This document shows positions 41,020 through 62,827 of a stretch of 62,860 nucleotides of DNA, in pieces. The notes beneath the pieces were generated by a model. That model was given only the letters and a program-made list of their open reading frames with translations. It had not been told where the DNA came from and ran no database searches. The translations under genes were made by a program, and so were the position numbers. The DNA comes from an uncultured bacterium (GTDB lineage: Bacteria > Omnitrophota > Omnitrophia > Omnitrophales > Danuiimicrobiaceae), in NCBI GenBank assembly GCA_964373885.1, contig CAYJWM010000003.1, positions 1 through 62,860 of the forward strand, given 5' to 3'. Each line of letters starts with the position of its first letter. Positions within the stretch are counted from its first letter, which is position 1.

Positions 41020-41469
41020 ATGAAGAGAAGAATTCAAGGTTTCACCCTCGTTGAGCTGATTATCGTGATTGCCATTATTGGTATCGTTGTCGCGATTACG
41101 ACTTCGAGCTACCTGGCTGCCCGCGTCAATGCCAATGAAGGAGGTGTGAAGGGGGCCCTAAAGGGCGTTCAAAGCGCCTGCATTACCTATCGCACCGAGC
41201 AGGGCGCCTATCCTCCCGATCTTGCGACTATGGGGTCCACTTATTTGGGCGGGGGGCTCGAGACAGGTGATAAGTCCGGGTATCTTTATGAATTGCGCAA
41301 CGGTAGCGGCGGAGAAACATATACGACTACTGCAGTTCCCAAATCAGCGAATTTTACGGGTGTGAGAAGTTACTGTACCGACGCCTACAATGTCATTTAT
41401 TCTTATAATACAGCTACCGTTACGGGCAATGGAGTTTCCTGTCCTCCGGGTGGGACAGCTTTGAGTTAG
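41020..41469 (+). CDS. pilA: type IV pilin (prepilin with class III signal peptide)
   Basis: 149 aa. MKRRIQG|FTLVELIIVIAIIGIV has Gly-1, Phe+1 and Glu+5 plus a hydrophobic N-terminal helix. The C-terminal domain contains cysteines. Confidence 0.9.
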   Translation: MKRRIQGFTLVELIIVIAIIGIVVAITTSSYLAARVNANEGGVKGALKGVQSACITYRTEQGAYPPDLATMGSTYLGGGLETGDKSGYLYELRNGSGGETYTTTAVPKSANFTGVRSYCTDAYNVIYSYNTATVTGNGVSCPPGGTALS

Positions 41470-41470
41470 C

Positions 41471-41575
41471 ATCAGGGACGGTTCTCTAAAACTTTCATTT
41501 CAATTCTCACAATTCGTTAAAAATAGTCAACGAATCGTGGCCTATTAAAGGCCGTCTATGAGAACCGTCCCTGAT
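41471..41575. repeat. 105-bp element with perfect 16-bp terminal inverted repeats (long hairpin; may act as the pilin terminator)
   Basis: ATCAGGGACGGTTCTC at 41471-41486 is the exact reverse complement of 41560-41575. Inner hairpins are ATTCGTT/AACGAAT and GGCCT/AGGCC. Followed by TTTT. Confidence 0.65.
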
Positions 41576-41663
41576 TTTGACATGTGTAAAAATTTTTTTA
41601 CTTAATTGACTTTGATTATTGATTCAACAAGTCATTTAAGGAGTATTTTTTCGGGCTTCATAC

Positions 41664-41678
41664 TGGCATGTAAATTGA
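41664..41678 (+). promoter_or_regulatory. candidate sigma54 (-24/-12) promoter for the second pilin
   Basis: TGGCATGTAAATTGA compared with consensus TGGCACG-N4-TTGCW. The GG spacing is correct, but the -12 GC is GA. A PilR-type sigma54 activator is encoded upstream. Confidence 0.3.
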
Positions 41679-41691
41679 GTATTAGGACGTT

Positions 41692-41730
41692 GTCATTCCC
41701 GCATGCTGTAAGCGGGAATCCATAGATCCC
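41692..41730. repeat. partial GTCATTCCCGC...GCGGGAATC palindromic element
   Basis: GTCATTCCCGC-atgctgtaa-GCGGGAATCCATAGATCC. Same left end as the 48950 element. The right boundary is unclear. Confidence 0.5.
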
Positions 41731-41895
41731 CGACACATTTTCGGAGAAGAACGTCATACTCGTAGAGGATGTCAAAATCCTCACGAGTAGTATTTGCCGC
41801 ATTGAGCGGCAAATGCCAGTTCTTCCCGAAAAGTGCTCCGCGCATTAAGCGCGAGCGTTAAAACATTCGGGGATGACCTTAAAGGAGGAAATACA

Positions 41896-42387
41896 ATGAA
41901 CACATTACATGGAAAAAAAGGTTTCACCCTTGTGGAAATTATGATCGTGGTGGCCATTATCGGTCTTTTGGCCGCGATCGCGATTCCGAACTTGCTTCGC
42001 GCCCGAATCAACTCCAATGACAGTGCAGTGCAGGGCGATTTGAGGGCGTTCAGCACGGCCAACGAAAGTTGCCGAGCAGCACAAGCACCTCCAAACTACT
42101 GTGTACTGGGAGGCGCTGGCACCGCGAGCTTGACTGGTGCCGTTCCACCGTATTTGGATGCAACATGGGTGCCTGGTGCAGTTGCCTCGAGACATGGGCA
42201 CACAATAGTTTATGCGGTGCCCGGTGCACCCGCTTCGACGTATTCACTGATGGCTACTTTGATACCAAACCAATCAGCGAAAACTTTTTGTATTGACCAC
42301 ACCGGCGTTCTCCGTGGTCCTACTCCTGCTGGTGCTATGCCGACAGGTACAGCAGCTGGTTGTGCTGGTGGACAAGCAGTAACTTGA
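41896..42387 (+). CDS. type IV pilin, second paralog
   Basis: The ATG at 41896 is preceded by AAAGGAGG. MNTLHGKKG|FTLVEIMIVVAIIGLLAAIAIPNLLRAR. Four Cys in the C-terminal domain. The ORF track extends to 41833 but that start lacks an RBS. Confidence 0.9.
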   Translation: MNTLHGKKGFTLVEIMIVVAIIGLLAAIAIPNLLRARINSNDSAVQGDLRAFSTANESCRAAQAPPNYCVLGGAGTASLTGAVPPYLDATWVPGAVASRHGHTIVYAVPGAPASTYSLMATLIPNQSAKTFCIDHTGVLRGPTPAGAMPTGTAAGCAGGQAVT

Positions 42388-42416
42388 TTTGGGTTACATT
42401 TCCGCGTTTTTTGAAT

Positions 42417-42453
42417 CTACCCACTCCCTTCGGGGGGCGGGTAGGTTTTTTTT
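42417..42453 (+). terminator. rho-independent terminator after the second pilin
   Basis: CTACCCACTCCC-ttcg-GGGGGCGGGTAG stem followed by a T8 run. Confidence 0.8.
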
Positions 42454-42541
42454 CAGGAAAGCGTTTAACTCTTTTTCTTCTTTGTTTCACCTGTTTTTTA
42501 TGGTATTCTGCCCTCATTTTCAGCTTTCCTTAACAGTTTTT

Positions 42542-42943
42542 ATGCTACGTTCCCAAGAACGGCTTTTCAAAAAAGCTGTGACCCCTGAAAAGGCCGTGCT
42601 CTGCGCTTTGTCATTGCGAGCCCGCCGTGATTTTCGGCGGGCGCGGCAATCTATGAACTTGGATTGCTTCGCTCGGGCTTTCTGCCGCCCTCGAAGAGGG
42701 TCGCTTGCAATGACGGTTTTACTGGCGTCTCTTGTTTTAACGCCGGCCGCCGGATTTGCCCAAACATCCGCTTTGCCGAAAGCGCGCGGTTCCTACTGGA
42801 CTTCAGGCGGCACCAACCTGATTGAAGACAAGCTTCCGCTCATTCCTTTTCTGGAACGGAAAGAATTGTTTCGGCTTCTTCGGCAAACCGACAGCATTGT
42901 TTTTCTCGACATACCCATCCTCATTCATGATTTAGGTGAATGA
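42542..42943 (+). CDS. small secreted-protein ORF interrupted in frame by a palindromic repeat and probably 3'-truncated
   Basis: ATG at 42542. Conceptual removal of the 105-bp repeat gives MLRSQERLFKKAVTPEKAVLCALVLLASLVLTPAAGFAQ, a textbook signal peptide. The C-terminus ...ELFRLLRQTDSIVFLDI resembles the start of a rhodanese-like domain and then stops. No clear Shine-Dalgarno. Confidence 0.35.
   Translation: MLRSQERLFKKAVTPEKAVLCALSLRARRDFRRARQSMNLDCFARAFCRPRRGSLAMTVLLASLVLTPAAGFAQTSALPKARGSYWTSGGTNLIEDKLPLIPFLERKELFRLLRQTDSIVFLDIPILIHDLGE
42610..42714. repeat. 105-bp palindromic element, GTCATTGCGAG...CTTGCAATGAC family
   Basis: Terminal inverted repeats GTCATTGCGAG/CTTGCAATGAC with an internal hairpin CCGCCGtgattttCGGCGG. 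The length is a multiple of 3 and it has no stop in the host frame. Confidence 0.75.
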
Positions 42944-43017
42944 CACCATATACTTTGCGCTTCAAATAACTTGAGACAGTTTGCTTTGCCCACTCAGTGC
43001 ATCGCTGCATTTTAGTC

Positions 43018-43046
43018 GTGACTTTCCTGCAGTTTTATGCATAATA
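43018..43046 (+). promoter_or_regulatory. promoter candidate for ATPase copy 1 (GTGACT-17 nt-TGcATAATA), ATG 6 nt after the -10
   Basis: Extended -10 TGcATAATA ends at 43046 and the ATG is at 43053 with no Shine-Dalgarno. This suggests a leaderless mRNA. Confidence 0.35.
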
Positions 43047-43052
43047 GTCGGC

Positions 43053-44174
43053 ATGAAAAGAAGTCTTGAAAGTGCGATCAAAAAAGATTTGGACGACAAA
43101 ATTGTCCTGTTGAGCGGACCCCGCCAAGTAGGAAAGACCACTCTTGCAAGAGCGCTTTACCCCAAAAATTCAGAATATTTTAATATCGATAATGAAGAAG
43201 ACCGGCTGTTGATCCGAAGGACTGCATGGAGACGCGACTGTGACTTGGTCATTTTTGACGAGCTCCACAAGCTTAAGAAATGGAAAAACTGGATCAAGGG
43301 GATTTATGATAAGGAAGGAGTAAACCCTCGGCTTCTTGTAACAGGGTCCGCGCGGCTTGACGCCTACCGGCGCGGAGGCGATTCTCTTGCCGGCAGATTT
43401 TATTCCTACCGGCTTCATCCTTTTTCGGTGGCAGAGGTGAAAGAGCAATATCCGGCAGATGAAGCGTTTGATCGGATCCTGCGGTTCGGAGGATTTCCGG
43501 AGCCATTCCTCAAGGCGAATGAAACAGCGGCAAAAAGATGGCGGCGCTCTCATGCAGACCGGATTTTGCGGGATGACCTGCGTGATATCGCTTCAGTGCG
43601 GGACACGAGGGGAGTCGGCACCCTTGTCGAGCTGCTTCGCCAATCCGTAGGGAGCACCATTTCCTATGAGTCTCTTTCACGCGATTTACAGGTTTCCCCT
43701 CATACGGTCAAGTACTGGATCGGCATGCTGGAAAGTCTTTTTATCCTGTTTATTGTGACCCCTTACTCCCGCAATATCGCCCGGAGTCTTCTTAAGCAGC
43801 CCAAAATTTACTTTTACGATACGGGTTTTGTAAAAGAAGACCCAGGCGCCAGATTTGAAAATGCCGTCGCTTGCGCTTTGCTCAAACGGCTTCATTTTCT
43901 TGAAGATATGGGGGGTGACAAGTGCGCCCTCCACTATCTGCGGGACAAGGACAAAAGAGAAGTAGATTTCGTGACGATCCGGGACGGAAAACCGGAGTTT
44001 TTGATCGAGACCAAATTATCCGATCCAGAAACCCCTTCTCTTGAGCATTTCAAGAGTTTTTTTGGCAGCCAGATTGAACCTGTCATCCTCGTCAAGAATA
44101 TCAAACGCGAACTTTTTCTTAAAGGGATTAAAATCAAAAAGGCAAGCCAGTGGCTTCAAACCCTTGAAGCATAG
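43053..44174 (+). CDS. AAA+ ATPase with C-terminal PD-(D/E)xK-like module (COG1373 / AAA_14-DUF4143-type), copy 1
   Basis: Walker A GPRQVGKTT and Walker B LVIFDELH. C-terminal HYLRDKDKREVDF...FLIETK fits a D...ExK nuclease-fold motif. Paralog of 59406-60626. Confidence 0.8.
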   Translation: MKRSLESAIKKDLDDKIVLLSGPRQVGKTTLARALYPKNSEYFNIDNEEDRLLIRRTAWRRDCDLVIFDELHKLKKWKNWIKGIYDKEGVNPRLLVTGSARLDAYRRGGDSLAGRFYSYRLHPFSVAEVKEQYPADEAFDRILRFGGFPEPFLKANETAAKRWRRSHADRILRDDLRDIASVRDTRGVGTLVELLRQSVGSTISYESLSRDLQVSPHTVKYWIGMLESLFILFIVTPYSRNIARSLLKQPKIYFYDTGFVKEDPGARFENAVACALLKRLHFLEDMGGDKCALHYLRDKDKREVDFVTIRDGKPEFLIETKLSDPETPSLEHFKSFFGSQIEPVILVKNIKRELFLKGIKIKKASQWLQTLEA

Positions 44175-44181
44175 AGGGCTC

Positions 44182-45191
44182 ATGTTTAAACACATCTTCA
44201 CTTTGTTTTTAATTTCCGCGGCCGTGTTCACGCAGATTCCGCCGTTTGCTTTCTCCGACGACGGATCTCTTCCTTCCGGAACTGTAGCGGGTCCAAATGA
44301 AGGAGATACAAATCCCGCGCAAGATCCGCTTTCTTCCGATAAAGAGAGCGGTCAAGGAGATCAAACGGGCGATACCGACCCGCTCCTCCTTCATCAAGGG
44401 GATTTCAAGCTTGAAGCCCGCGACCTTTTGATTCCGCCACGCGGGGGATTCCGCTTGAAATCAAACGCACCTACCGCTCAAGAAGCCGCTACAACGGCCC
44501 CTTCGGCTACGGCCGGGACTTTAATTTCAATATGCGGCTTAGAAAACGCTCCAATGGCGACGTTGCGATTTTGGCGGGGGATAATCGGCGCAATGAGTTT
44601 AAGAAAGTGGGAGCATCTTATCAAGCGCCACCCGGCATTTACGACACGCTTACGCAAAATGGGGACGGTTCCTTTAATCTCAGGAAAAAACACGGCGAGC
44701 TTTATGTCTTTGATGTGAACGGCAAGCTCGTCACGATGAGTGACCGAAACGGCAACACGACGACCTTCACTTATGACCCCAATGGAAAACTTCCCGTCAT
44801 CGGTACCTCGCCTTATTTTGTCGGCCAAACAACCGGAATTGTCGTGATGGACTACCGCTTGATTCAAATCACGGATTCAGTCGGAAGAAACATCGATCTT
44901 TTCTACAATTCAGACGGCCGCCTTGAAAAAATCAAGGATTTCACGGGCCGCGTCCTCATTTATCAATATAGTCCTGCCGGCGATCTTATTTCCTTCGGTG
45001 AGATCCCCCCGGGCGGACTTTTATCCGGTGAAACCCTCATGGGCTATAAAACGACCTACACCTACACGAATCACAATCTTGAGACCATCACCGATGCGAA
45101 AGCCAAGACCTATCTTCAAAACGTGTACAACACGGAAGACCGCGTGATTTGTATGTCGTCAGACCTTTTTGGACACGGACTCAGGATTTGA
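44182..45191 (+). pseudogene. Rhs/YD-repeat protein N-terminal remnant (frameshifted and truncated)
   Basis: Signal peptide MFKHIFTLFLISAAVFTQIPPFAFS, then DPLLLHQGDFKLEARDLLIPPRG. The reading frame switches at the G5 run (44443-44447) to GIPLEIKRTYRSRSRYNGPFGYGRDFNF. YD repeats follow (FTYDPNGKL, YQYSPAGDL, YTYTNHNLETITD). It ends after about 330 codons with no core or toxin domain. Confidence 0.75.
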
Positions 45192-45345
45192 GTTTGCGCT
45201 TTGAGCCGGGTCTGGGTGTTGGTTGAGATTGTAATTTTTCCTCCGTTCCAGGGTCAATCGTTTCTTCCGAGATCTCGCTTTTAAAATCTCCTCCTTTCTG
45301 CCCGGATAAATACCTCTTGCGGATGAAGCGATTAGTGAGGCGATT

Positions 45346-46467
45346 ATGAAGTATGTCTGGCAGTGCGAAAGCTGGCCGAAACTGACTTGGCGAAGCGAGC
45401 CCTTGTTGGCATTCATCGGCAAAGCGCGCTTGGCCCAGGGGACGTTTTTGACCCGGGCAGCCAATCTGGGTTTTAAACTGAGCCGGGAGGCACAAGCAGC
45501 TATTTTAACGGAAGAAGCGGTCAAAACATCGGCTATTGAAGGGGAGCGTTTAAACCGGGAATCAGTACGTTCGTCTGTGGCGCGGCATTTGGGATTACCC
45601 GTCGCCGGCCTTCCTCCAGCCAGTCGCTCGATTGACGGTTTGGTGGAGGTGCTTTTGGAGGCAGCTGAGAATTATGACAAACCGCTTACAGCGGCACGAC
45701 TCAAACGCTGGCAGGCAGCTCTTTTTCCAACCGGGCATTCGGGACTCAGGCGGATTCGAGTGGGCAGGTGGCGGGGTCCTACGCATCCGATGCAGGTTGT
45801 TTCCGGTGCTGTGGGCCGTGAAAAAATCCATTTCGAAGCCCCGCCGGGCGAAAAGGTGGAACGCGAAATAAAAGAGTTTCTTTCCTGGTGGAAGAGAAGC
45901 TTGCGGCATGAGGAAGGCCTTTTAAGGTCGGGGCTTGCTCATTTTTATTTTGTGACCATTCATCCCTTTGAAGACGGCAACGGGCGAATTGCCCGCACCT
46001 TGACGGATATGGCGCTCGCGCAAGATGCAAAACTTTCTACCCGTTACCACAGTCTTTCTTCCCAGATTATGGAGGAGCGGGATGATTATTACCGTGTCCT
46101 CGAAACCTGTCAGAAAGGAGCTGGGGATATCACCGAATGGCTCCAGTGGTACTTGGGATGTTACCAGCGGGCGGTGGAAAGAGCCGGGGGATTGATTGCG
46201 AACGTTTTGGCTAAGGCCGAATTTTGGCAACGTCACGACAAACTTGAGATCAATGAACGCCAGCAGAAAGTTGTAAACCGACTCCTGGATGCGGGCAAGG
46301 GTGGTTTTGAGGGAGGCCTGACGACCCGCAAATATGTTTCGATGGCCAAAGTGAGCCGCGCCACCGCGTTCCGCGAAATATCAGGTTTGTTAGAAAAAGG
46401 CCTCCTTCGCCAAAATCCTGCGAAGGGCCGCAGCGCAAGTTATGATTTAAATTGGGATGAGGGATAA
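45346..46467 (+). CDS. Fic family protein (DUF4172-type N-terminus, C-terminal winged-helix-like region)
   Basis: 373 aa. Fic motif HPFEDGNGRIAR at 45961-45996. N-terminal TSAIEG (45526-45543) fits the inhibitory (S/T)xxxE(G/N) motif. Confidence 0.88.
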   Translation: MKYVWQCESWPKLTWRSEPLLAFIGKARLAQGTFLTRAANLGFKLSREAQAAILTEEAVKTSAIEGERLNRESVRSSVARHLGLPVAGLPPASRSIDGLVEVLLEAAENYDKPLTAARLKRWQAALFPTGHSGLRRIRVGRWRGPTHPMQVVSGAVGREKIHFEAPPGEKVEREIKEFLSWWKRSLRHEEGLLRSGLAHFYFVTIHPFEDGNGRIARTLTDMALAQDAKLSTRYHSLSSQIMEERDDYYRVLETCQKGAGDITEWLQWYLGCYQRAVERAGGLIANVLAKAEFWQRHDKLEINERQQKVVNRLLDAGKGGFEGGLTTRKYVSMAKVSRATAFREISGLLEKGLLRQNPAKGRSASYDLNWDEG

Positions 46468-46570
46468 GAGGATTTTCAGAAAATCCCGCCTTTTGCCGAT
46501 ACTTTAACAGTTAAATTTTCCCAAATTTTAGGATAAATCTGTAGCCAAAACAGGGCAGATACGCATCCAC

Positions 46571-58824: not shown

Positions 58825-59325
58825 ATGACTTCCTCGTTATTTAAGATCCGGACTTTTCCGGATCCCGTGCTGCGCAAAATTTCGCTGCCCGTAACAAAAA
58901 TAGACCCCGCACTTCTCGCGTTTGTCAGAAAACTTGAGGAAACCATGGAAGCCCAACCGGGCGGAATCGGGATTGCAGCCCCCCAAGTGGGTGTTTTAAG
59001 GCAAGTTGCGATCGTAGATGTATCGCCAAAGGAAGCCGGCACCCAACGGCTCATTTTGATCAATCCGGTCATTTTAGAGCGTTTTGAGGAGAAGATCGTC
59101 AGGGAGGGGTGTATGAGCTTGCCGCATTATACCGCCAATGTCACGCGGGCCGGGCGGATTCGGCTTCGCTGGTTTGATTTGGAGATGAGGCGGCGGGAGA
59201 AAGTATCCTCGGAGTTAGAAGCAATTTGTATTCAACATGAGGTGGATCATTTGAACGGAATGCTGTTTTTGGACCGGGTGGGCTGCCTTAATAGCGATGT
59301 GTTTCGCCGCAAACGCTACTTGTAA
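58825..59325 (+). CDS. def: peptide deformylase (full length)
   Basis: 166 aa with motif 1 GIGIAAPQVG, motif 2 EGCMSLP and motif 3 HEVDHLNG. Confidence 0.93.
   Translation: MTSSLFKIRTFPDPVLRKISLPVTKIDPALLAFVRKLEETMEAQPGGIGIAAPQVGVLRQVAIVDVSPKEAGTQRLILINPVILERFEEKIVREGCMSLPHYTANVTRAGRIRLRWFDLEMRRREKVSSELEAICIQHEVDHLNGMLFLDRVGCLNSDVFRRKRYL
58929..59313 (+). repeat. 385-bp direct repeat, copy 1 (inside def)
   Basis: Identical by eye over its full length to 60695-61079. Confidence 0.9.
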
Positions 59326-59358
59326 CTTTTTCTTTATTCTTCAATAACGCCCTATCTG

Positions 59359-59386
59359 CTCTAAAAAAGTCTTGACTTTTTTAGAG
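59359..59386. repeat. 28-bp perfect palindrome overlapping the cassette promoter -35
   Basis: CTCTAAAAAAGTC-tt-GACTTTTTTAGAG, two 13-bp arms. Confidence 0.7.
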
Positions 59387-59399
59387 TATGGTCTAATAT
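59372..59399 (+). promoter_or_regulatory. promoter candidate for ATPase copy 2 (TTGACT-16 nt-TAATAT), ATG 6 nt after the -10
   Basis: TTGACT at 59372-59377 and TAATAT at 59394-59399. The ATG is at 59406 with no Shine-Dalgarno, giving a leaderless-like geometry as for copy 1. Confidence 0.45.
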
Positions 59400-59405
59400 T
59401 TAGGC

Positions 59406-60626
59406 ATGATCCCGAGAACTGCTTTAAATACCGTTTCAACCATTACGGAACGTTACCAGAAGATGGTATTTTTGACCGGTCCGAGACAGGTTGGCAAGAC
59501 CACGCTTGCTCAGGGCTATCAAAAACAATTCTCCCAAAGCTTTTATTTCAACTGGGATGATCTTCATCACCAAAAAATGCTGGCCAAGGAGCCCTATTTT
59601 TTTGAGAAGCAAAATAGGGATCCCAAAAAGCCTTTTCTTGTGGTTTTGGATGAAATTCACAAATATGCCCGCTGGAAGAATTATCTCAAAGGAGCGTTTG
59701 ACAGCTTCGGGAAAGAATTTCTTTTTTTAGTGACCGGGAGCGGACGCCTTGATCTTTTTAAAAAAGGGGGTGACAGCCTTCTTGGCCGGTATTTCAGCGT
59801 AAAACTTTTCCCCTTAAGTGTTGGGGAATTAGAGCAATCTTTTCCGTCTCTTTCTGATTTCAAATCCCGCTTACAGGAAATGCCGGAATATTCAAAAAAG
59901 AGAAGGGGAACCTATGAACAGCTCTTTGAGATGAGCGGATTTCCGGACCCATTTCTCAAAGCTGAAAAGAAATTTTACCATCTCTGGTTTAAAGAACGGA
60001 AATCTTTACTGCTCCGGGAAGATATTCGGAATGCGGCCAACATCCGTGAGCTCTCACTTTTGGAAATATTTTCTCATCTCATTCCCGGCCGCATTGGCAG
60101 CCCTCTGTCTTTAAATGCGCTTCGTGAAGATACCGGCGTCGCTTTTGAAACCATTCGGGACTGGACGCTCGTTCTTGAGCAGTTTTATTATTTGTTTCGT
60201 CTTACCCCCTATTTCAAAAACGTGGCGCGTGCCTTGAGAAAGGAAACAAAGGTGTATCTGTACGATTGGGTGGAAGTGGAAGATCCCGCGCTTAGGTTTG
60301 AAAACATAGCGGCTTTGCATTTGTGGAAAGCCGTGAATATGTGGCAGGACCAGGGTGAAGAAGCGATATCGCTCCACTATCTTCGCGATAAGGACAAGCG
60401 GGAAGTCGATTTTGCCCTTGTTCACAAAAAAAGCCCCTTTTGTTTGATTGAGTGCAAAGCGGGGCAGGATGAGATGTCACCGTCTTTGGTTTATTTTCAA
60501 AAGAAATTAAATGTTCCTATAGCGGTTCAACTCGTTCATCAGCCGGGAATCTGCAAAAAAATGAAGGACGGCAGTTTGACCCGCTGGGTCATTTCCGCCG
60601 ACCGCTGGCTCGCGCTTTTACCTTAA
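59406..60626 (+). CDS. AAA+ ATPase with C-terminal PD-(D/E)xK-like module (COG1373 / AAA_14-DUF4143-type), copy 2
   Basis: 406 aa with Walker A GPRQVGKTT and Walker B LVVLDEIH. C-terminal HYLRDKDKREVDF...CLIECK. Confidence 0.8.
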   Translation: MIPRTALNTVSTITERYQKMVFLTGPRQVGKTTLAQGYQKQFSQSFYFNWDDLHHQKMLAKEPYFFEKQNRDPKKPFLVVLDEIHKYARWKNYLKGAFDSFGKEFLFLVTGSGRLDLFKKGGDSLLGRYFSVKLFPLSVGELEQSFPSLSDFKSRLQEMPEYSKKRRGTYEQLFEMSGFPDPFLKAEKKFYHLWFKERKSLLLREDIRNAANIRELSLLEIFSHLIPGRIGSPLSLNALREDTGVAFETIRDWTLVLEQFYYLFRLTPYFKNVARALRKETKVYLYDWVEVEDPALRFENIAALHLWKAVNMWQDQGEEAISLHYLRDKDKREVDFALVHKKSPFCLIECKAGQDEMSPSLVYFQKKLNVPIAVQLVHQPGICKKMKDGSLTRWVISADRWLALLP

Positions 60627-60659
60627 TCTTGCATGACTGCTTAAAACAGTTGTCTCATC

Positions 60660-61091
60660 ATGGATACACAAATCCAGGGTCAAGGAAAGGAGGAAAAACT
60701 TGAGGAAACCATGGAAGCCCAACCGGGCGGAATCGGGATTGCAGCCCCCCAAGTGGGTGTTTTAAGGCAAGTTGCGATCGTAGATGTATCGCCAAAGGAA
60801 GCCGGCACCCAACGGCTCATTTTGATCAATCCGGTCATTTTAGAGCGTTTTGAGGAGAAGATCGTCAGGGAGGGGTGTATGAGCTTGCCGCATTATACCG
60901 CCAATGTCACGCGGGCCGGGCGGATTCGGCTTCGCTGGTTTGATTTGGAGATGAGGCGGCGGGAGAAAGTATCCTCGGAGTTAGAAGCAATTTGTATTCA
61001 ACATGAGGTGGATCATTTGAACGGAATGCTGTTTTTGGACCGGGTGGGCTGCCTTAATAGCGATGTGTTTCGCCGCAAAAAATATCTCTGA
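60660..61091 (+). pseudogene. 5'-truncated duplicate of def (lacks the first ~35 codons, retains all three catalytic motifs)
   Basis: From KLEETMEAQPGG to FRRK the protein is identical to def. The N-terminus is replaced by the unrelated MDTQIQGQGKEE. The last residues are KYL rather than RYL. Confidence 0.7.
60695..61079 (+). repeat. 385-bp direct repeat, copy 2
   Basis: Identical by eye to 58929-59313. Confidence 0.9.
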
Positions 61092-61093
61092 TT

Positions 61094-62827
61094 TTACGAT
61101 TTACTCTGTTTCGAATATAGTGTCGCGATGCGAACCCTGGCCAAATCCATTTCCGGGTTTAAACGCAAGGCAGTTTCAAAAAAGCGGATTGCTTCATCGG
61201 TTTTTCCTTGCAAATGGTACATTTGACCCAGATTGAAATAAGCGGAAGCATTGCTTGGATTTAACGAAATGGCGTGGCAGGTATATGCGATCGCTTCTTT
61301 TAACTTTCCCTTTTTCGCTGACGCATTTCCGAGGTTTATGTAGGCCCCGTGGTGGTTGGGATTGATTTCAAGCGCTTTGGCGTACTGCTCAATTGCTTCG
61401 TCAAGCTTACCTTTTTCCTCCAACGCCACCCCTAGATGGTTGCGGGCGATTATTTGTTCCGGCGCAAGTTGTACCGCTTCCCGAAAATGTGAAATAGCGG
61501 AATCCACCTCGCCACGTTCAAATAGCGCAATCCCAAGGCCTTGATGTGCGATCGCACTCTGGGGCCGCTTTGCCAGGGTATCGCTCCAGATTGAAATGGC
61601 GCTTTGATATACGGCGTTGCGCTGGATGGTAAGGATGCTGAGTGTGAGCAGGGAAGTGAGTAGGATCCCGAAACTGATGTATCTAGGGTTTTTGCCCTGC
61701 ATCTTTGTGCGGGTGAATATGAAATGGAGCAATTTATGGACTGTGATGACGGTAAGGACTACAAGCACCGCAAGGGGCAGATACATGCGCCGATCCGCGG
61801 CAGGCCCTGAATTGGGATGGAAAAAGCTTGAGGTGGGGGCAAGAAAAAGAAAAAAAGAAAGCCCTAGAAATCCGAGACTGCTTTTTCGCCAAAATAGCCA
61901 TAACGATGCTCCAAAGAGCAGTGCAATAAAAAAGGTGTGCGGGAGCACTTGGCGGAATGTTTGAATGAGAGGCCAATTGTAATCAAAGCACAAGGCGCGC
62001 GGCCAGAAGGCCAGTTTTAAATAATGGGTCAAGACTTCCATCTGTGTGGCTAAATACGGCAAACTAAAACTGTTTCGCGGGGCATTCATTCCCAATGTTG
62101 ATTGCGGAGGGTTAAAAATAAGCAGCCCGAAGAGAATGATCCAAGTTGAAAAGAGGGCCAAATAAAATGGCGCTCTCAAACGAAGCGGTTTCTTAAATGA
62201 TTTTGAGATGAATACGGCATCATATAAAAAAATGACGATCGGAGCTCCTACCATTGATTCTTTTGTGGCCATGCCCAAAGCACAGAATGTCACCGCCGTA
62301 ACGAGCCAATAAACACTTGCTGAAGATTGAAATCCCCGAATGGCGCAATAAAAAGTCGCAAGAAAAAAGAAACCCATAAAGGATTCGCTCCTTTGAATGA
62401 TATACGTCACGCTTTCCGTTTGAATCGGATGGGCAAGCCAAAGCAAGGCAGAGACAAGGGCAAGTGTTGTTGCCGCGCTTCCGCAGCTTTGCCGCAAAAA
62501 CCCGGACGAGAGCGTCCGCCGGATAATGGCGAAGAGGAGAACAGCGTTCAGACAGTGGACCGCAATATTGGTCAGCCGATAGCTCCGGACGTCCAATCCT
62601 GAAAAGTGATAATTCAGCGCCAATGAAAATACGGTGAAAGGTCTTCGTGGATCACCCAGAAAAAAGTTCTCAAGGGAAGTCAGGCGGCGGATGTAGGGAC
62701 TGTGTACAATGTAGGTGCTATCGTCAAAAATGAACGGCGCCGGAATGCTGTTCCAGTAGATGAGAACTGCCACGGTGCTGAAAAGTAACGGTATGAGAAT
62801 GCGTCTGTGAGATTCCAGGGCTTGCAC
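61094..62827 (-). CDS. polytopic membrane protein with C-terminal TPR repeats (PMT/TMTC-like putative glycosyltransferase)
   Basis: 577 aa with a GTG start. About 10 hydrophobic segments in the N-terminal 400 aa, then 4-5 TPR units (AIAHQGLGIALFERGEVDSAISHFREAVQL...). The only minus-strand gene; convergent with the def copy at a 2-bp gap. Confidence 0.65.
   Translation of the reverse strand: MQALESHRRILIPLLFSTVAVLIYWNSIPAPFIFDDSTYIVHSPYIRRLTSLENFFLGDPRRPFTVFSLALNYHFSGLDVRSYRLTNIAVHCLNAVLLFAIIRRTLSSGFLRQSCGSAATTLALVSALLWLAHPIQTESVTYIIQRSESFMGFFFLATFYCAIRGFQSSASVYWLVTAVTFCALGMATKESMVGAPIVIFLYDAVFISKSFKKPLRLRAPFYLALFSTWIILFGLLIFNPPQSTLGMNAPRNSFSLPYLATQMEVLTHYLKLAFWPRALCFDYNWPLIQTFRQVLPHTFFIALLFGASLWLFWRKSSLGFLGLSFFLFLAPTSSFFHPNSGPAADRRMYLPLAVLVVLTVITVHKLLHFIFTRTKMQGKNPRYISFGILLTSLLTLSILTIQRNAVYQSAISIWSDTLAKRPQSAIAHQGLGIALFERGEVDSAISHFREAVQLAPEQIIARNHLGVALEEKGKLDEAIEQYAKALEINPNHHGAYINLGNASAKKGKLKEAIAYTCHAISLNPSNASAYFNLGQMYHLQGKTDEAIRFFETALRLNPEMDLARVRIATLYSKQSKS

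Follow-up and report, generated by a model that had tools for sequence, protein, structure and literature searches.

Members of COG1373 are listed by PADLOC as the phage defence candidate PDC-S01, a nomination made through members embedded in BREX, DISARM and type I restriction-modification (R-M) loci (bioRxiv 10.1101/2024.01.29.577857). In a census of defence entries, PDC-S01, described as an ATPase fused to a PD-(D/E)xK domain, was the fourth most common in prokaryotes, with ~29,000 bacterial and ~10,000 archaeal instances, and it is still a candidate system (PMC12988326). We describe here two genes of this family, copy 1 and copy 2, found in a 62,860-nt stretch of DNA from an uncultured bacterium of the Omnitrophota (GenBank assembly GCA_964373885.1, contig CAYJWM010000003.1), the whole of which was analysed and is called the window below. 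COG1373/PDC-S01 is among the most abundant uncharacterised families in bacteria and archaea, and it owes its place in defence catalogues to genomic association alone.

At the protein level the two genes do not differ from PDC-S01, of which both products are members and with which they have in common the single-gene ATPase plus PD-(D/E)xK architecture and a broad, patchy distribution. The PDC-S01 literature that we searched consists of census data, and a leaderless-type promoter, a 12-mer or palindrome, cassette limits and flanking gene-fragment duplications are not described there. What seems to be new here is the anatomy of the cassette, namely its fixed limits, a leaderless-type promoter shared by the two subfamilies, a repeat resembling an operator, and footprints of recombination, among them a very recent insertion at def. 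We consider it probable that copy 1 and copy 2, as members of a known family of ATPase-nucleases, were acquired horizontally and are self-regulated conflict genes.

Family assignment and predicted structure

Both genes belong to COG1373/PDC-S01 (AAA_14 plus DUF4143), a known, abundant and uncharacterised family. The Pfam domain AAA_14 was matched by copy 1 with E = 2e-24 (86.5 bits) and by copy 2 with E = 3e-28 (99 bits; cut-off 27), DUF4143 by copy 1 with E = 3e-28 (98.9 bits) and by copy 2 with E = 5e-21 (75.6 bits; cut-off 28.1), and the PADLOC model for PDC-S01, PDLC04790, by both proteins along their full length (E = 2.4e-57 for copy 1 and 1.8e-46 for copy 2). NCBIfam contains no model for the family, and a sequence search of the PDB gave no match. 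The proteins are 36% identical over a full-length alignment, and tblastn found these two family members and no others in the 62.9-kb window. Relatives of copy 1 are mostly 373 amino acids long, which fixes its start codon. Across ~45 contexts no conserved partner gene accompanies the family, as befits a single-gene system.

Both copies contain the Walker A motif GPRQVGKTT, a hydrophobic strand ending in the Walker B acidic pair, (F/L)DE, and a C-terminal block, HYLRDKDKREVDF...IE(T/C)K. The two Walker motifs, GPRQVGKTT and the DE pair, do not vary in an alignment of 72 sequences drawn from both subfamilies, and neither do E269, D305, E319 and K321 (copy 1 numbering; Table 1). The AlphaFold2 model of copy 1, built from this alignment, has a pLDDT of 89.6 and a pTM of 0.90, and the best PDB matches that Foldseek returned for the full-length model are RuvB, archaeal Orc1/Cdc6 on origin DNA, RFC subunits, Hda and MuB, all of them AAA+ proteins and several with a C-terminal winged helix. 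Residues 250–373 modelled alone (pLDDT 89.3) form helix-strand-strand-strand-helix-strand, the α-β-β-β-α-β core. Their best structural matches are the restriction-fold nucleases McrC, MspJI, Bax1, Card1, BstEII, EndoMS and EcoT38I, nucleases of this fold accounting for 9 of the 11 top PDB matches at modest scores (E = 3e-3 to 5e-2, TM ~0.35–0.5). E269 lies in helix 1, D305 in strand 2, and E319 and K321 in strand 3, the canonical PD-(D/E)xK positions, and DUF4143 had previously been placed in the PD-(D/E)xK superfamily by Steczkiewicz et al. (PMC3424549). By modelled fold and motif the C-terminal domain is a PD-(D/E)xK nuclease, and nuclease activity is predicted. An initial annotation of the window, made from the sequence alone, had read the two genes as diverged paralogs of COG1373 with shared Walker A, Walker B and C-terminal motifs and a C-terminal domain of restriction-endonuclease fold; the domain searches and C-terminal structure prediction that it had proposed as checks were run, both came out positive, and this reading holds, for the nuclease domain at the level of fold and motif.

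The proteins resemble McrBC and the nucleases McrC, MspJI and EcoT38I in pairing a nucleotide-driven motor with a restriction-fold nuclease, McrC being the best C-terminal structural match. They differ from these in that motor and nuclease form one chain of 373–406 residues with a winged helix in between, in that the AAA+ domain resembles the clamp-loader, initiator and RuvB group and not McrB, and in that a modification-reading domain is missing. With Orc1/Cdc6 and RuvB, copy 1 has in common the order AAA+ base, lid and winged helix (Foldseek E = 2e-7 to 6e-7); Orc1/Cdc6 and RuvB have no nuclease domain, however, and their identity to copy 1 is just 13–20% (TM ~0.3). Orc1/Cdc6 associates with inverted repeats at origin boxes, to which the palindrome beside copy 2 offers a parallel. 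No evidence points to a replication role for the window proteins.

Limits of the cassette and its promoter

The two genes were compared with ~45–50 related loci, among them 36–40 distinct loci of the copy-2 type and seven contexts of the copy-1 type. DNA similarity of copy 2 to relatives in unrelated contexts (BLASTN) always begins at position 59359, 47 nt ahead of the ATG, and ends with the stop codon at 60626; that of copy 1 runs from 42995–43008 to 44170–44179 in the seven contexts. Among 36 distinct loci the mean pairwise identity is 0.25, the random value, from −120 to −63 and again in the 60 nt past the stop codon, and it is 0.49–0.63 inside the unit. A fixed unit of ~1.3 kb between unrelated flanks, which starts ~47–62 nt ahead of the ATG and ends with the stop codon, is strongly supported by these alignments. 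The description of each gene as a self-contained cassette, given in the initial annotation, thus stands, the similarity limits being the same among relatives in unrelated contexts.

Each gene is preceded by a promoter-like site (Table 1) that agrees with the consensus at 9 of 12 positions. Two or three such matches per region are expected by chance in the promoter scan, and the sites are credible because they are conserved in relatives and not because of the consensus match itself. In copy-2 relatives the −35 is TTGACT and the −10, after a 16-nt spacer, is for example TAAAAT or TAATAT; 25 distinct loci have 6 nt between the −10 and the start codon and 11 have 7 nt (6–7 nt in 36 of 40). Copy-1 relatives have TTGACT, 16 nt, CAAAAT or CATAAT, 7 nt and ATG, and a gap of 6–7 nt between −10 and start codon is kept in all seven copy-1 contexts. 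Upstream conservation in the copy-1 alignment reaches from about −58 to the ATG, and in relatives the upstream block is conserved better than the coding sequence. The −10 of copy 2 contains an in-frame TAA stop, and its ORF therefore starts no further upstream.

That the same geometry recurs in two subfamilies at 36% protein identity is the main argument for placing the transcription start on the AUG or next to it; the mRNA, expected to begin no more than a base or two from the AUG, would then be leaderless. A search for RNA runs containing these sequences returned none. The promoter pairs that the initial annotation had placed ahead of each ATG were found, the −10 ending 7 nt upstream in copy 1 (43045) and 6 nt upstream in copy 2 (59399). 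Of its argument for a leaderless-type arrangement, the geometry is kept in relatives, and the missing Shine-Dalgarno motif carries little weight, since by a loose test only ~21 of the 48 window ORFs have one.

Table 1. Features of the two cassettes and their surroundings in the window, and loci of copy-2 relatives on other contigs
Feature	Position	Strand	Description or basis
Small orphan ORF	42710–42943	+	Signal-peptide-like N-terminus; copy 1 starts 110 nt after it
Copy 1 conserved upstream block	43006–43052	+	Promoter scan; alignment with relatives; BLASTN
Copy 1 repeats in upstream block	43006–43052	+	12-mer GACTTTCCTGCA and inverted relative TGCATAATAGTC
Copy 1 promoter-like site	−35 43018–43023; −10 43040–43045	+	GTGACT, 16-nt spacer, CATAAT, 7 nt to ATG
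Copy 1 ATPase-nuclease gene	43053–44174	+	373 aa; AAA+ ATPase, winged helix, PD-(D/E)xK
Copy 1 Walker A	43116–43142	+	Motif
Copy 1 Walker B (DE)	43257–43262	+	Motif
Copy 1 putative catalytic residues	E269 43857–43859; D305 43965–43967; E319 44007–44009; K321 44013–44015	+	Invariance
RHS-repeat gene remnant	44182–45191	+	Signal-peptide start; frameshift near 44532–44718; truncated after ~330 codons (full-length >1000)
DUF4172 + Fic gene	45346–46467	+	Pfam; PADLOC SoFic, E = 3.4e-44; 1.2 kb downstream of copy 1
Repeat R, copy A	58929–59313	+	Inside intact def (58825–59325)
Segment U	59314–60694	+	1381 nt: 12 nt (RYL-stop), 33-nt spacer, copy 2 cassette, 68 nt unrelated sequence
Copy 2 palindrome	59359–59386	.	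Perfect, 13-bp arms CTCTAAAAAAGTC tt GACTTTTTTAGAG, centred on −35
Copy 2 promoter-like site	59372–59399	+	−35 TTGACT, 16-nt spacer, −10 TAATAT, 6 nt to ATG
Copy 2 ATPase-nuclease gene	59406–60626	+	406 aa; architecture as in copy 1
Repeat R, copy B	60695–61079	+	5'-truncated def, ORF 60660–61091; ends KYL-stop; abuts convergent TPR gene ending at 61094
L091			Copy-2 relative after 3' end of mfd-like gene
L090			Copy-2 relative before release-factor gene
L086			Copy-2 relative beside Fic and HTH genes
L087			Copy-2 relative after DDE transposase, near second paralogue
L092			Copy-2 relative downstream of def-fmt-gap; pterin-dehydratase gene downstream

Repeats over the promoter

A 12-mer, GACTTTTyTrsA, lies over the promoter as a feature common to both subfamilies, one that the initial annotation did not mention. 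The palindrome of copy 2 corresponds to the inner portion of a longer one, of up to ~50 bp, in relatives, many of which have arms of 24–25 bp, as in TTTAGACCGAAGTCTAAAAAAGTC tt GACTTTTTTAGACTTCGGTCTAAA, with the right end of the palindrome being the −10. An inner block of 5 nt varies from locus to locus and yet stays complementary between the arms (CGAAG/CTTCG, CATCC/GGATG, CAAAC/GTTTG). Among 36 distinct sequences, 42 alignment cells are altered on both sides of the palindrome, against 24.6 ± 4 in shuffled sets, none of the 500 shuffles reaching 42, and sliding the partner columns destroys the signal. Copy-1 relatives have a related 12-mer, GACTTTTCTGCA, in two direct copies and one inverted copy between about −62 and +1. 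We infer that the 12-mer repeats are an operator, most simply for the winged helix of the protein itself.

The conserved palindrome could instead be a nucleic-acid hairpin, either a cruciform or single-stranded DNA (ssDNA) structure or an RNA hairpin in read-through transcripts, that might serve to insulate the gene from upstream transcription or as a recombination site. The arms do co-vary so as to keep complementarity, changes compatible with G-T pairing included, and an ssDNA hairpin is predicted at −9.9 kcal/mol (z = −5.7) for copy 2 in the window and at −21 to −23 kcal/mol (z between −10 and −12) for relatives with full arms. Several observations nonetheless make a hairpin in place of an operator improbable. 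The outer left arm is gone in the window and in the closest relatives, where the gene is intact; the −35 sits at the apex of the stem, and a transcript from this promoter would exclude the hairpin; and the copy-1 subfamily retains the 12-mer and the promoter geometry with no significant hairpin in its upstream region (z = −0.08). Since copy-1 relatives keep the 12-mer without the hairpin, the shared feature is the 12-mer. A T-run follows the stem on neither strand, which also speaks against the hairpin and led us to reject the palindrome as an intrinsic terminator.

Controller (C-protein) style R-M operons and toxin-antitoxin operons are autoregulated, and an operator of the kind favoured here would resemble theirs, a palindrome over the promoter of a gene that is potentially toxic and moves horizontally. 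The cassettes in the window differ from those operons in having no separate regulator gene, and binding of the operator by the product itself is the arrangement that we propose in its place. A second copy of the 12-mer downstream of the cassette, sought as a test for terminal repeats, was not found, and the 12-mer occurs only at the promoter.

Two loci, L115 and L120, carry an extra diverged pair of 12-mers, TCGTAAAAAGTC and GACTTTTTACGA, ~170–320 nt upstream of the ATPase start and beyond the main promoter; these may be remnants of an older cassette promoter.

The duplication at def

Copy 2 had been placed inside a duplication of def in the initial annotation, and this is borne out by an exact repeat of 385 nt (100% identity) on both sides of segment U and by a truncated def that is real. 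The order of the locus is def 5' part, R, U, R and native downstream DNA. The left def is full length (166 aa) and the right def lacks its first 35 codons. The right copy of R with its KYL-stop abuts the convergent TPR gene, and the right end of def is therefore the native one. The two 12-nt ends of def differ at 7 of 12 positions and encode nearly the same peptide (RYL-stop versus KYL-stop), from which it follows that the incoming DNA brought a diverged def tail. The gene stayed intact because this DNA supplies a substitute for its last four codons, and the event is judged recent because the two repeats show 0 differences in 385 nt. The 45-nt and 68-nt flanks of the cassette in segment U have no homology to any locus that we fetched.

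The same sequence data were weighed for an assembly artefact, in which a single def (a-R-b) would be present and a 1766-nt unit of R plus U would exist separately, as a circle or in another strain. A Logan contig from run ERR4904391 (L001) corresponds to 58929–60724, that is, 1796 nt of R plus U with a 30-nt terminal overlap, and looks circular, an appearance also expected from a loop in a k = 31 graph; the contig of a metagenome-assembled genome (MAG) breaks exactly at 59313; and a de Bruijn graph is compatible with both arrangements. The window contig spans both repeats, however, and all four junctions occur in independent Logan contigs from four runs. In four runs the depth of U is about that of the flanks and that of R ~1.3–1.7 times the flanks, as for an integrated copy, and a 1.8-kb circle without a replication gene would be unlikely at chromosomal depth in several samples. 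The substitute RYL-stop end is sensible only when joined to def, and similar duplications are found in unrelated assemblies. An artefact is thus very unlikely, and we treat copy 2 as integrated at def.

Searches for the uninterrupted site gave little. A scan of genome contigs with the def protein returned only distant def genes (at most 46% identity), because the pattern QHEVDHLN saturated it; among protein clusters no empty-site def allele was seen, the cluster consisting of the two window copies only; and contigs from four more runs at 80% likeness gave noise from other family members and no informative joints.

Relatives in other contexts and horizontal transfer

Relatives of copy 2 at 76–90% identity occur in unrelated contexts (Table 1) and on many further metagenome contigs, and close relatives of the window copies adjoin def, mfd, release-factor, ArgZ-like and pterin-dehydratase genes, among others. 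At 60–77% identity the relatives are labelled Omnitrophica, Nitrospirae, Nitrospinae, Deltaproteobacteria, Elusimicrobiota and Binatia, six phyla in all. The G+C content (GC) is 48.1% in copy 1 and 44.8% in copy 2, against 51.6 ± 1.3% in 26 long ORFs of the window. These distributions point to a clear pattern of frequent horizontal transfer for both cassettes. A scan of viral contigs yielded relatives of only 24–30% identity, and the window subfamilies are therefore not obviously phage-borne.

Among the immediate neighbours in 109 flanking ORFs housekeeping genes predominate, and a few neighbours are paralogues, integrases, PIN or Fic genes. Housekeeping neighbours, together with a fold like that of RuvB, Orc1/Cdc6, Hda and RFC, would fit vertically inherited housekeeping genes, for example in DNA repair or replication control, with the features of their context being coincidental. 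Close relatives lie at different loci in related genomes, however, and the cross-phylum distribution at 60–77% identity, a base composition atypical for the window and the presence of two diverged paralogues within 63 kb make vertical inheritance extremely unlikely.

Flanks were compared with each other in ~45 contexts, and 158 intervals of similar size in 61 unrelated loci served as controls. A partial duplication of a neighbouring gene was found in three of the ~45 distinct contexts, namely at copy 2 in the window and at two unrelated loci, and a direct flank repeat of at least 60 nt in none of the 158 control intervals. L099–L106 carry a gene of the copy-1 type (77% identity), and a fragment of 88 codons from the 5' part of their downstream ArgZ-like gene lies just upstream of the cassette at 80% DNA identity; in L099 and L102 such fragments measure 233–265 nt at 80–89% identity, the 89% being that of L102. 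In L092 a stretch of 186 nt over the start of the downstream pterin-dehydratase gene is found again, with 91% identity, 439 nt upstream of the cassette. At each of the three clear duplications the neighbouring gene is still present in one complete copy. The initial annotation had the genes recur at disrupted loci, which is true of this minority of contexts.

The L102 fragment is a mosaic. Comparison of L102:4640-4927 with L099:4640-4927 and L099:6203-6470 showed that the 5' two-thirds resemble the downstream full-length gene and the 3' third the diverged L099 fragment; further upstream L102 and L099 are entirely different. This suggests gene conversion or a second recombination event.

Repeats at L117 (66 nt) and L215–L217 (68–78 nt, three copies) resemble small dispersed elements, and they were left out of the count of neighbour duplications. 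The L215–L217 repeat occurs three times at 85–87% identity, once ~1 kb upstream of the ATPase gene and twice on its downstream side, at +562 and +2111; SLFN_AlbA_2, HipA-like and DUF2281 genes lie in the same island.

Several known kinds of mobile element were considered. The homing-like nature suggested in the initial annotation was rejected, as relatives of 76–90% identity lie beside def, mfd, release-factor, Fic/HTH and transposase genes, with no single target. A transposon or insertion sequence was rejected with the 12-mer at the promoter only, no short flanking repeats and no transposase or recombinase domain, and an integron gene cassette, defined by an ORF without a promoter and an attC site on its 3' side, was rejected because the palindrome, with a promoter in it, is on the 5' side of the ORF and similarity stops at the stop codon. 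Among the cassette loci neither a common target gene nor a shared junction motif was found, nor were terminal inverted repeats or short target duplications at the cassettes, and Pfam detected no recombinase or transposase domain in the window cassettes.

Some integrative elements replace the end of a gene, as do phage 21 and e14 at icd. The cassettes are like these elements and homing genes in being a self-contained unit with its own promoter next to a conserved gene, with a substitute 3' end in the case of def (RYL-stop). They are unlike them in the lack of a common target, an integrase and a short att core, and the duplicated stretches beside them are 186–385 nt long, taken in some cases from the 5' part of the neighbour and in others from its 3' part.

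An autonomous selfish element would explain part of these results, if the ATPase-nuclease promoted its own insertion, for example by cutting a target into which repair then copies the cassette. The palindrome would then be a recognition site, the long duplications a footprint at the target site, and embedding among other genes the product of promiscuous insertion and not of defence. The identical limits of the unit in many unrelated contexts, the three independent partial duplications against 0 of 158 controls, neighbours that are mostly housekeeping genes, the presence of more than one paralogue at several loci and the one heterologous defence assay not reported as positive are all in keeping with such an element. 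We regard it as unlikely, given that the loci have no common target gene or motif, no terminal inverted repeats or second downstream copy of the motif, and no short target duplication, recombinase or transposase domain, and that ~40 of ~45 contexts are without a duplication. In L092 the repeats lie 255–439 nt from the cassette, so that extra DNA came along, as expected for host recombination. A wider version of the idea, for which we see a small chance only, is that PDC-S01 genes are not primarily immunity genes, each being a one-gene selfish cassette of a new kind that triggers or biases its own capture at new loci through the promoter palindrome or 12-mer and leaves duplications of 186–385 nt, as at the three loci. 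If this were true, the leaderless promoter would allow expression in almost any host, and the nomination of PDC-S01 from its embedding in defence loci would be a by-product of promiscuous insertion.

A second AAA_14/DUF4143 paralogue often lies at most 1–3 kb from the first (4 of 109 flanking ORFs), as at L087:8182-9357 with an adjacent DDE transposase. At L108:100-1266 a gene 90% identical to copy 2 is without its first 17 codons and the whole promoter-palindrome block, and looks like a 5'-truncated pseudogene. In three contexts a translation-related gene lies directly downstream of a copy-2-type cassette, a release factor at L090:7420-8406, an RF-1-domain (ArfB-like) gene at L087:7301-7717 and def at 60660–61091 in the window; this may be coincidence.

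Proposed model for the cassettes

The reading that we favour, of horizontally acquired and self-regulated conflict genes, starts from features that are shown, namely the family and its fold, the conserved residues, the limits of the cassettes, the geometry of the promoters, the repeats and duplications and an atypical base composition, and proposes a leaderless start, autoregulation, a defence role and a route of integration. Each gene would travel as a minimal transcription unit with a σ70-type promoter whose −10 stands 6–7 nt before the start codon, a leaderless arrangement that would permit expression across many phyla. The 12-mer repeats over the promoter, inverted in copy-2 relatives and both direct and inverted in copy-1 relatives, would be an operator, bound by the protein's own winged helix and resulting in autorepression. 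The protein is most likely an ATP-dependent nuclease that senses DNA in genetic conflict, acting in defence against incoming DNA. The cassettes would not move by themselves and would be imported by host recombination, which sometimes leaves a partial duplicate of a neighbouring gene; entry may have occurred via a stretch of homology, through a single crossover or through homology-facilitated illegitimate recombination, with gene conversion between the copies afterwards. For copy 2 this event would be recent, with def preserved by the substitute for its last four codons.

In favour of a defence role, a SoFic-like gene lies beside copy 1, and the family was first noticed within BREX, DISARM and type I R-M loci. 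The stand-alone defence gene that the initial annotation had offered as one possibility agrees with the existing label PDC-S01, which is that of a candidate. Several points weigh against the favoured reading. Concerning defence, neighbours in ~45 contexts are mostly housekeeping genes with just a handful of PADLOC hits, and in the one published PDC-S01 assay that we found, which covered a single representative in E. coli B against T4, T5 and T7, that representative is absent from the list of protective systems (bioRxiv 10.1101/2024.09.26.614923). Concerning transcription and its regulation, the upstream 12-mer of copy 1 is degenerate and its surroundings form no significant hairpin, the mirrored changes seen in the palindrome could also reflect a hairpin of DNA or RNA or stem from template-switch mutation, and read-through from def into copy 2 is a possible alternative to the cassette promoter. 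Concerning integration, the single-crossover model does not fit the L102 mosaic, and 0 differences in 385 nt next to 7 in 12 at the end of def are hard to explain by a single crossover.

The cassette offers several handles on the family, namely a unit of ~1.3 kb, a promoter that predicts a leaderless mRNA, a candidate binding site in the 12-mer and palindrome, and a fresh footprint at the essential gene def. These features suggest how such a gene can work after transfer between phyla and allow one to ask whether the family is immune in function, selfish or both. An operator and a promoter that behave as predicted would also be of use in experiments that require expression or control of family members.

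Surroundings of copy 1

Copy 1 lies in an accessory block of ~4 kb (42400–46500) that consists of the orphan ORF, copy 1, the RHS remnant and the SoFic-like gene. The block stands between pseudopilin genes (41020–42387) and an operon of pilM, pilO and secretin genes (from 46571), and seems to break up a set of genes for a pilus or a type II secretion-like system. Both the gap between the small ORF and copy 1 and the decayed Rhs gene that begins 7 nt past copy 1 are as the initial annotation had given them. Its further proposal, that the small ORF breaks off as a rhodanese-like domain begins, was not supported: Pfam gave no hit for this ORF and a collection of 5.8 billion proteins yielded no homologue of it, so that there is no evidence for a truncated rhodanese gene, and it is not demonstrably a broken gene.

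Fic genes keep company with the family twice, as the SoFic-like gene near copy 1 and as the Fic and HTH pair next to the copy-2 relative in L086. Upstream of the accessory block, a direct repeat of 118 nt at 70% identity (41036–41153 and 41918–42035) covers the 5' ends of two N_methyl pseudopilin genes and probably reflects paralogous N-termini. Just past the first pseudopilin gene lies a perfect inverted repeat of 16 nt (41471–41486 and 41560–41575) with 73 nt between its arms.

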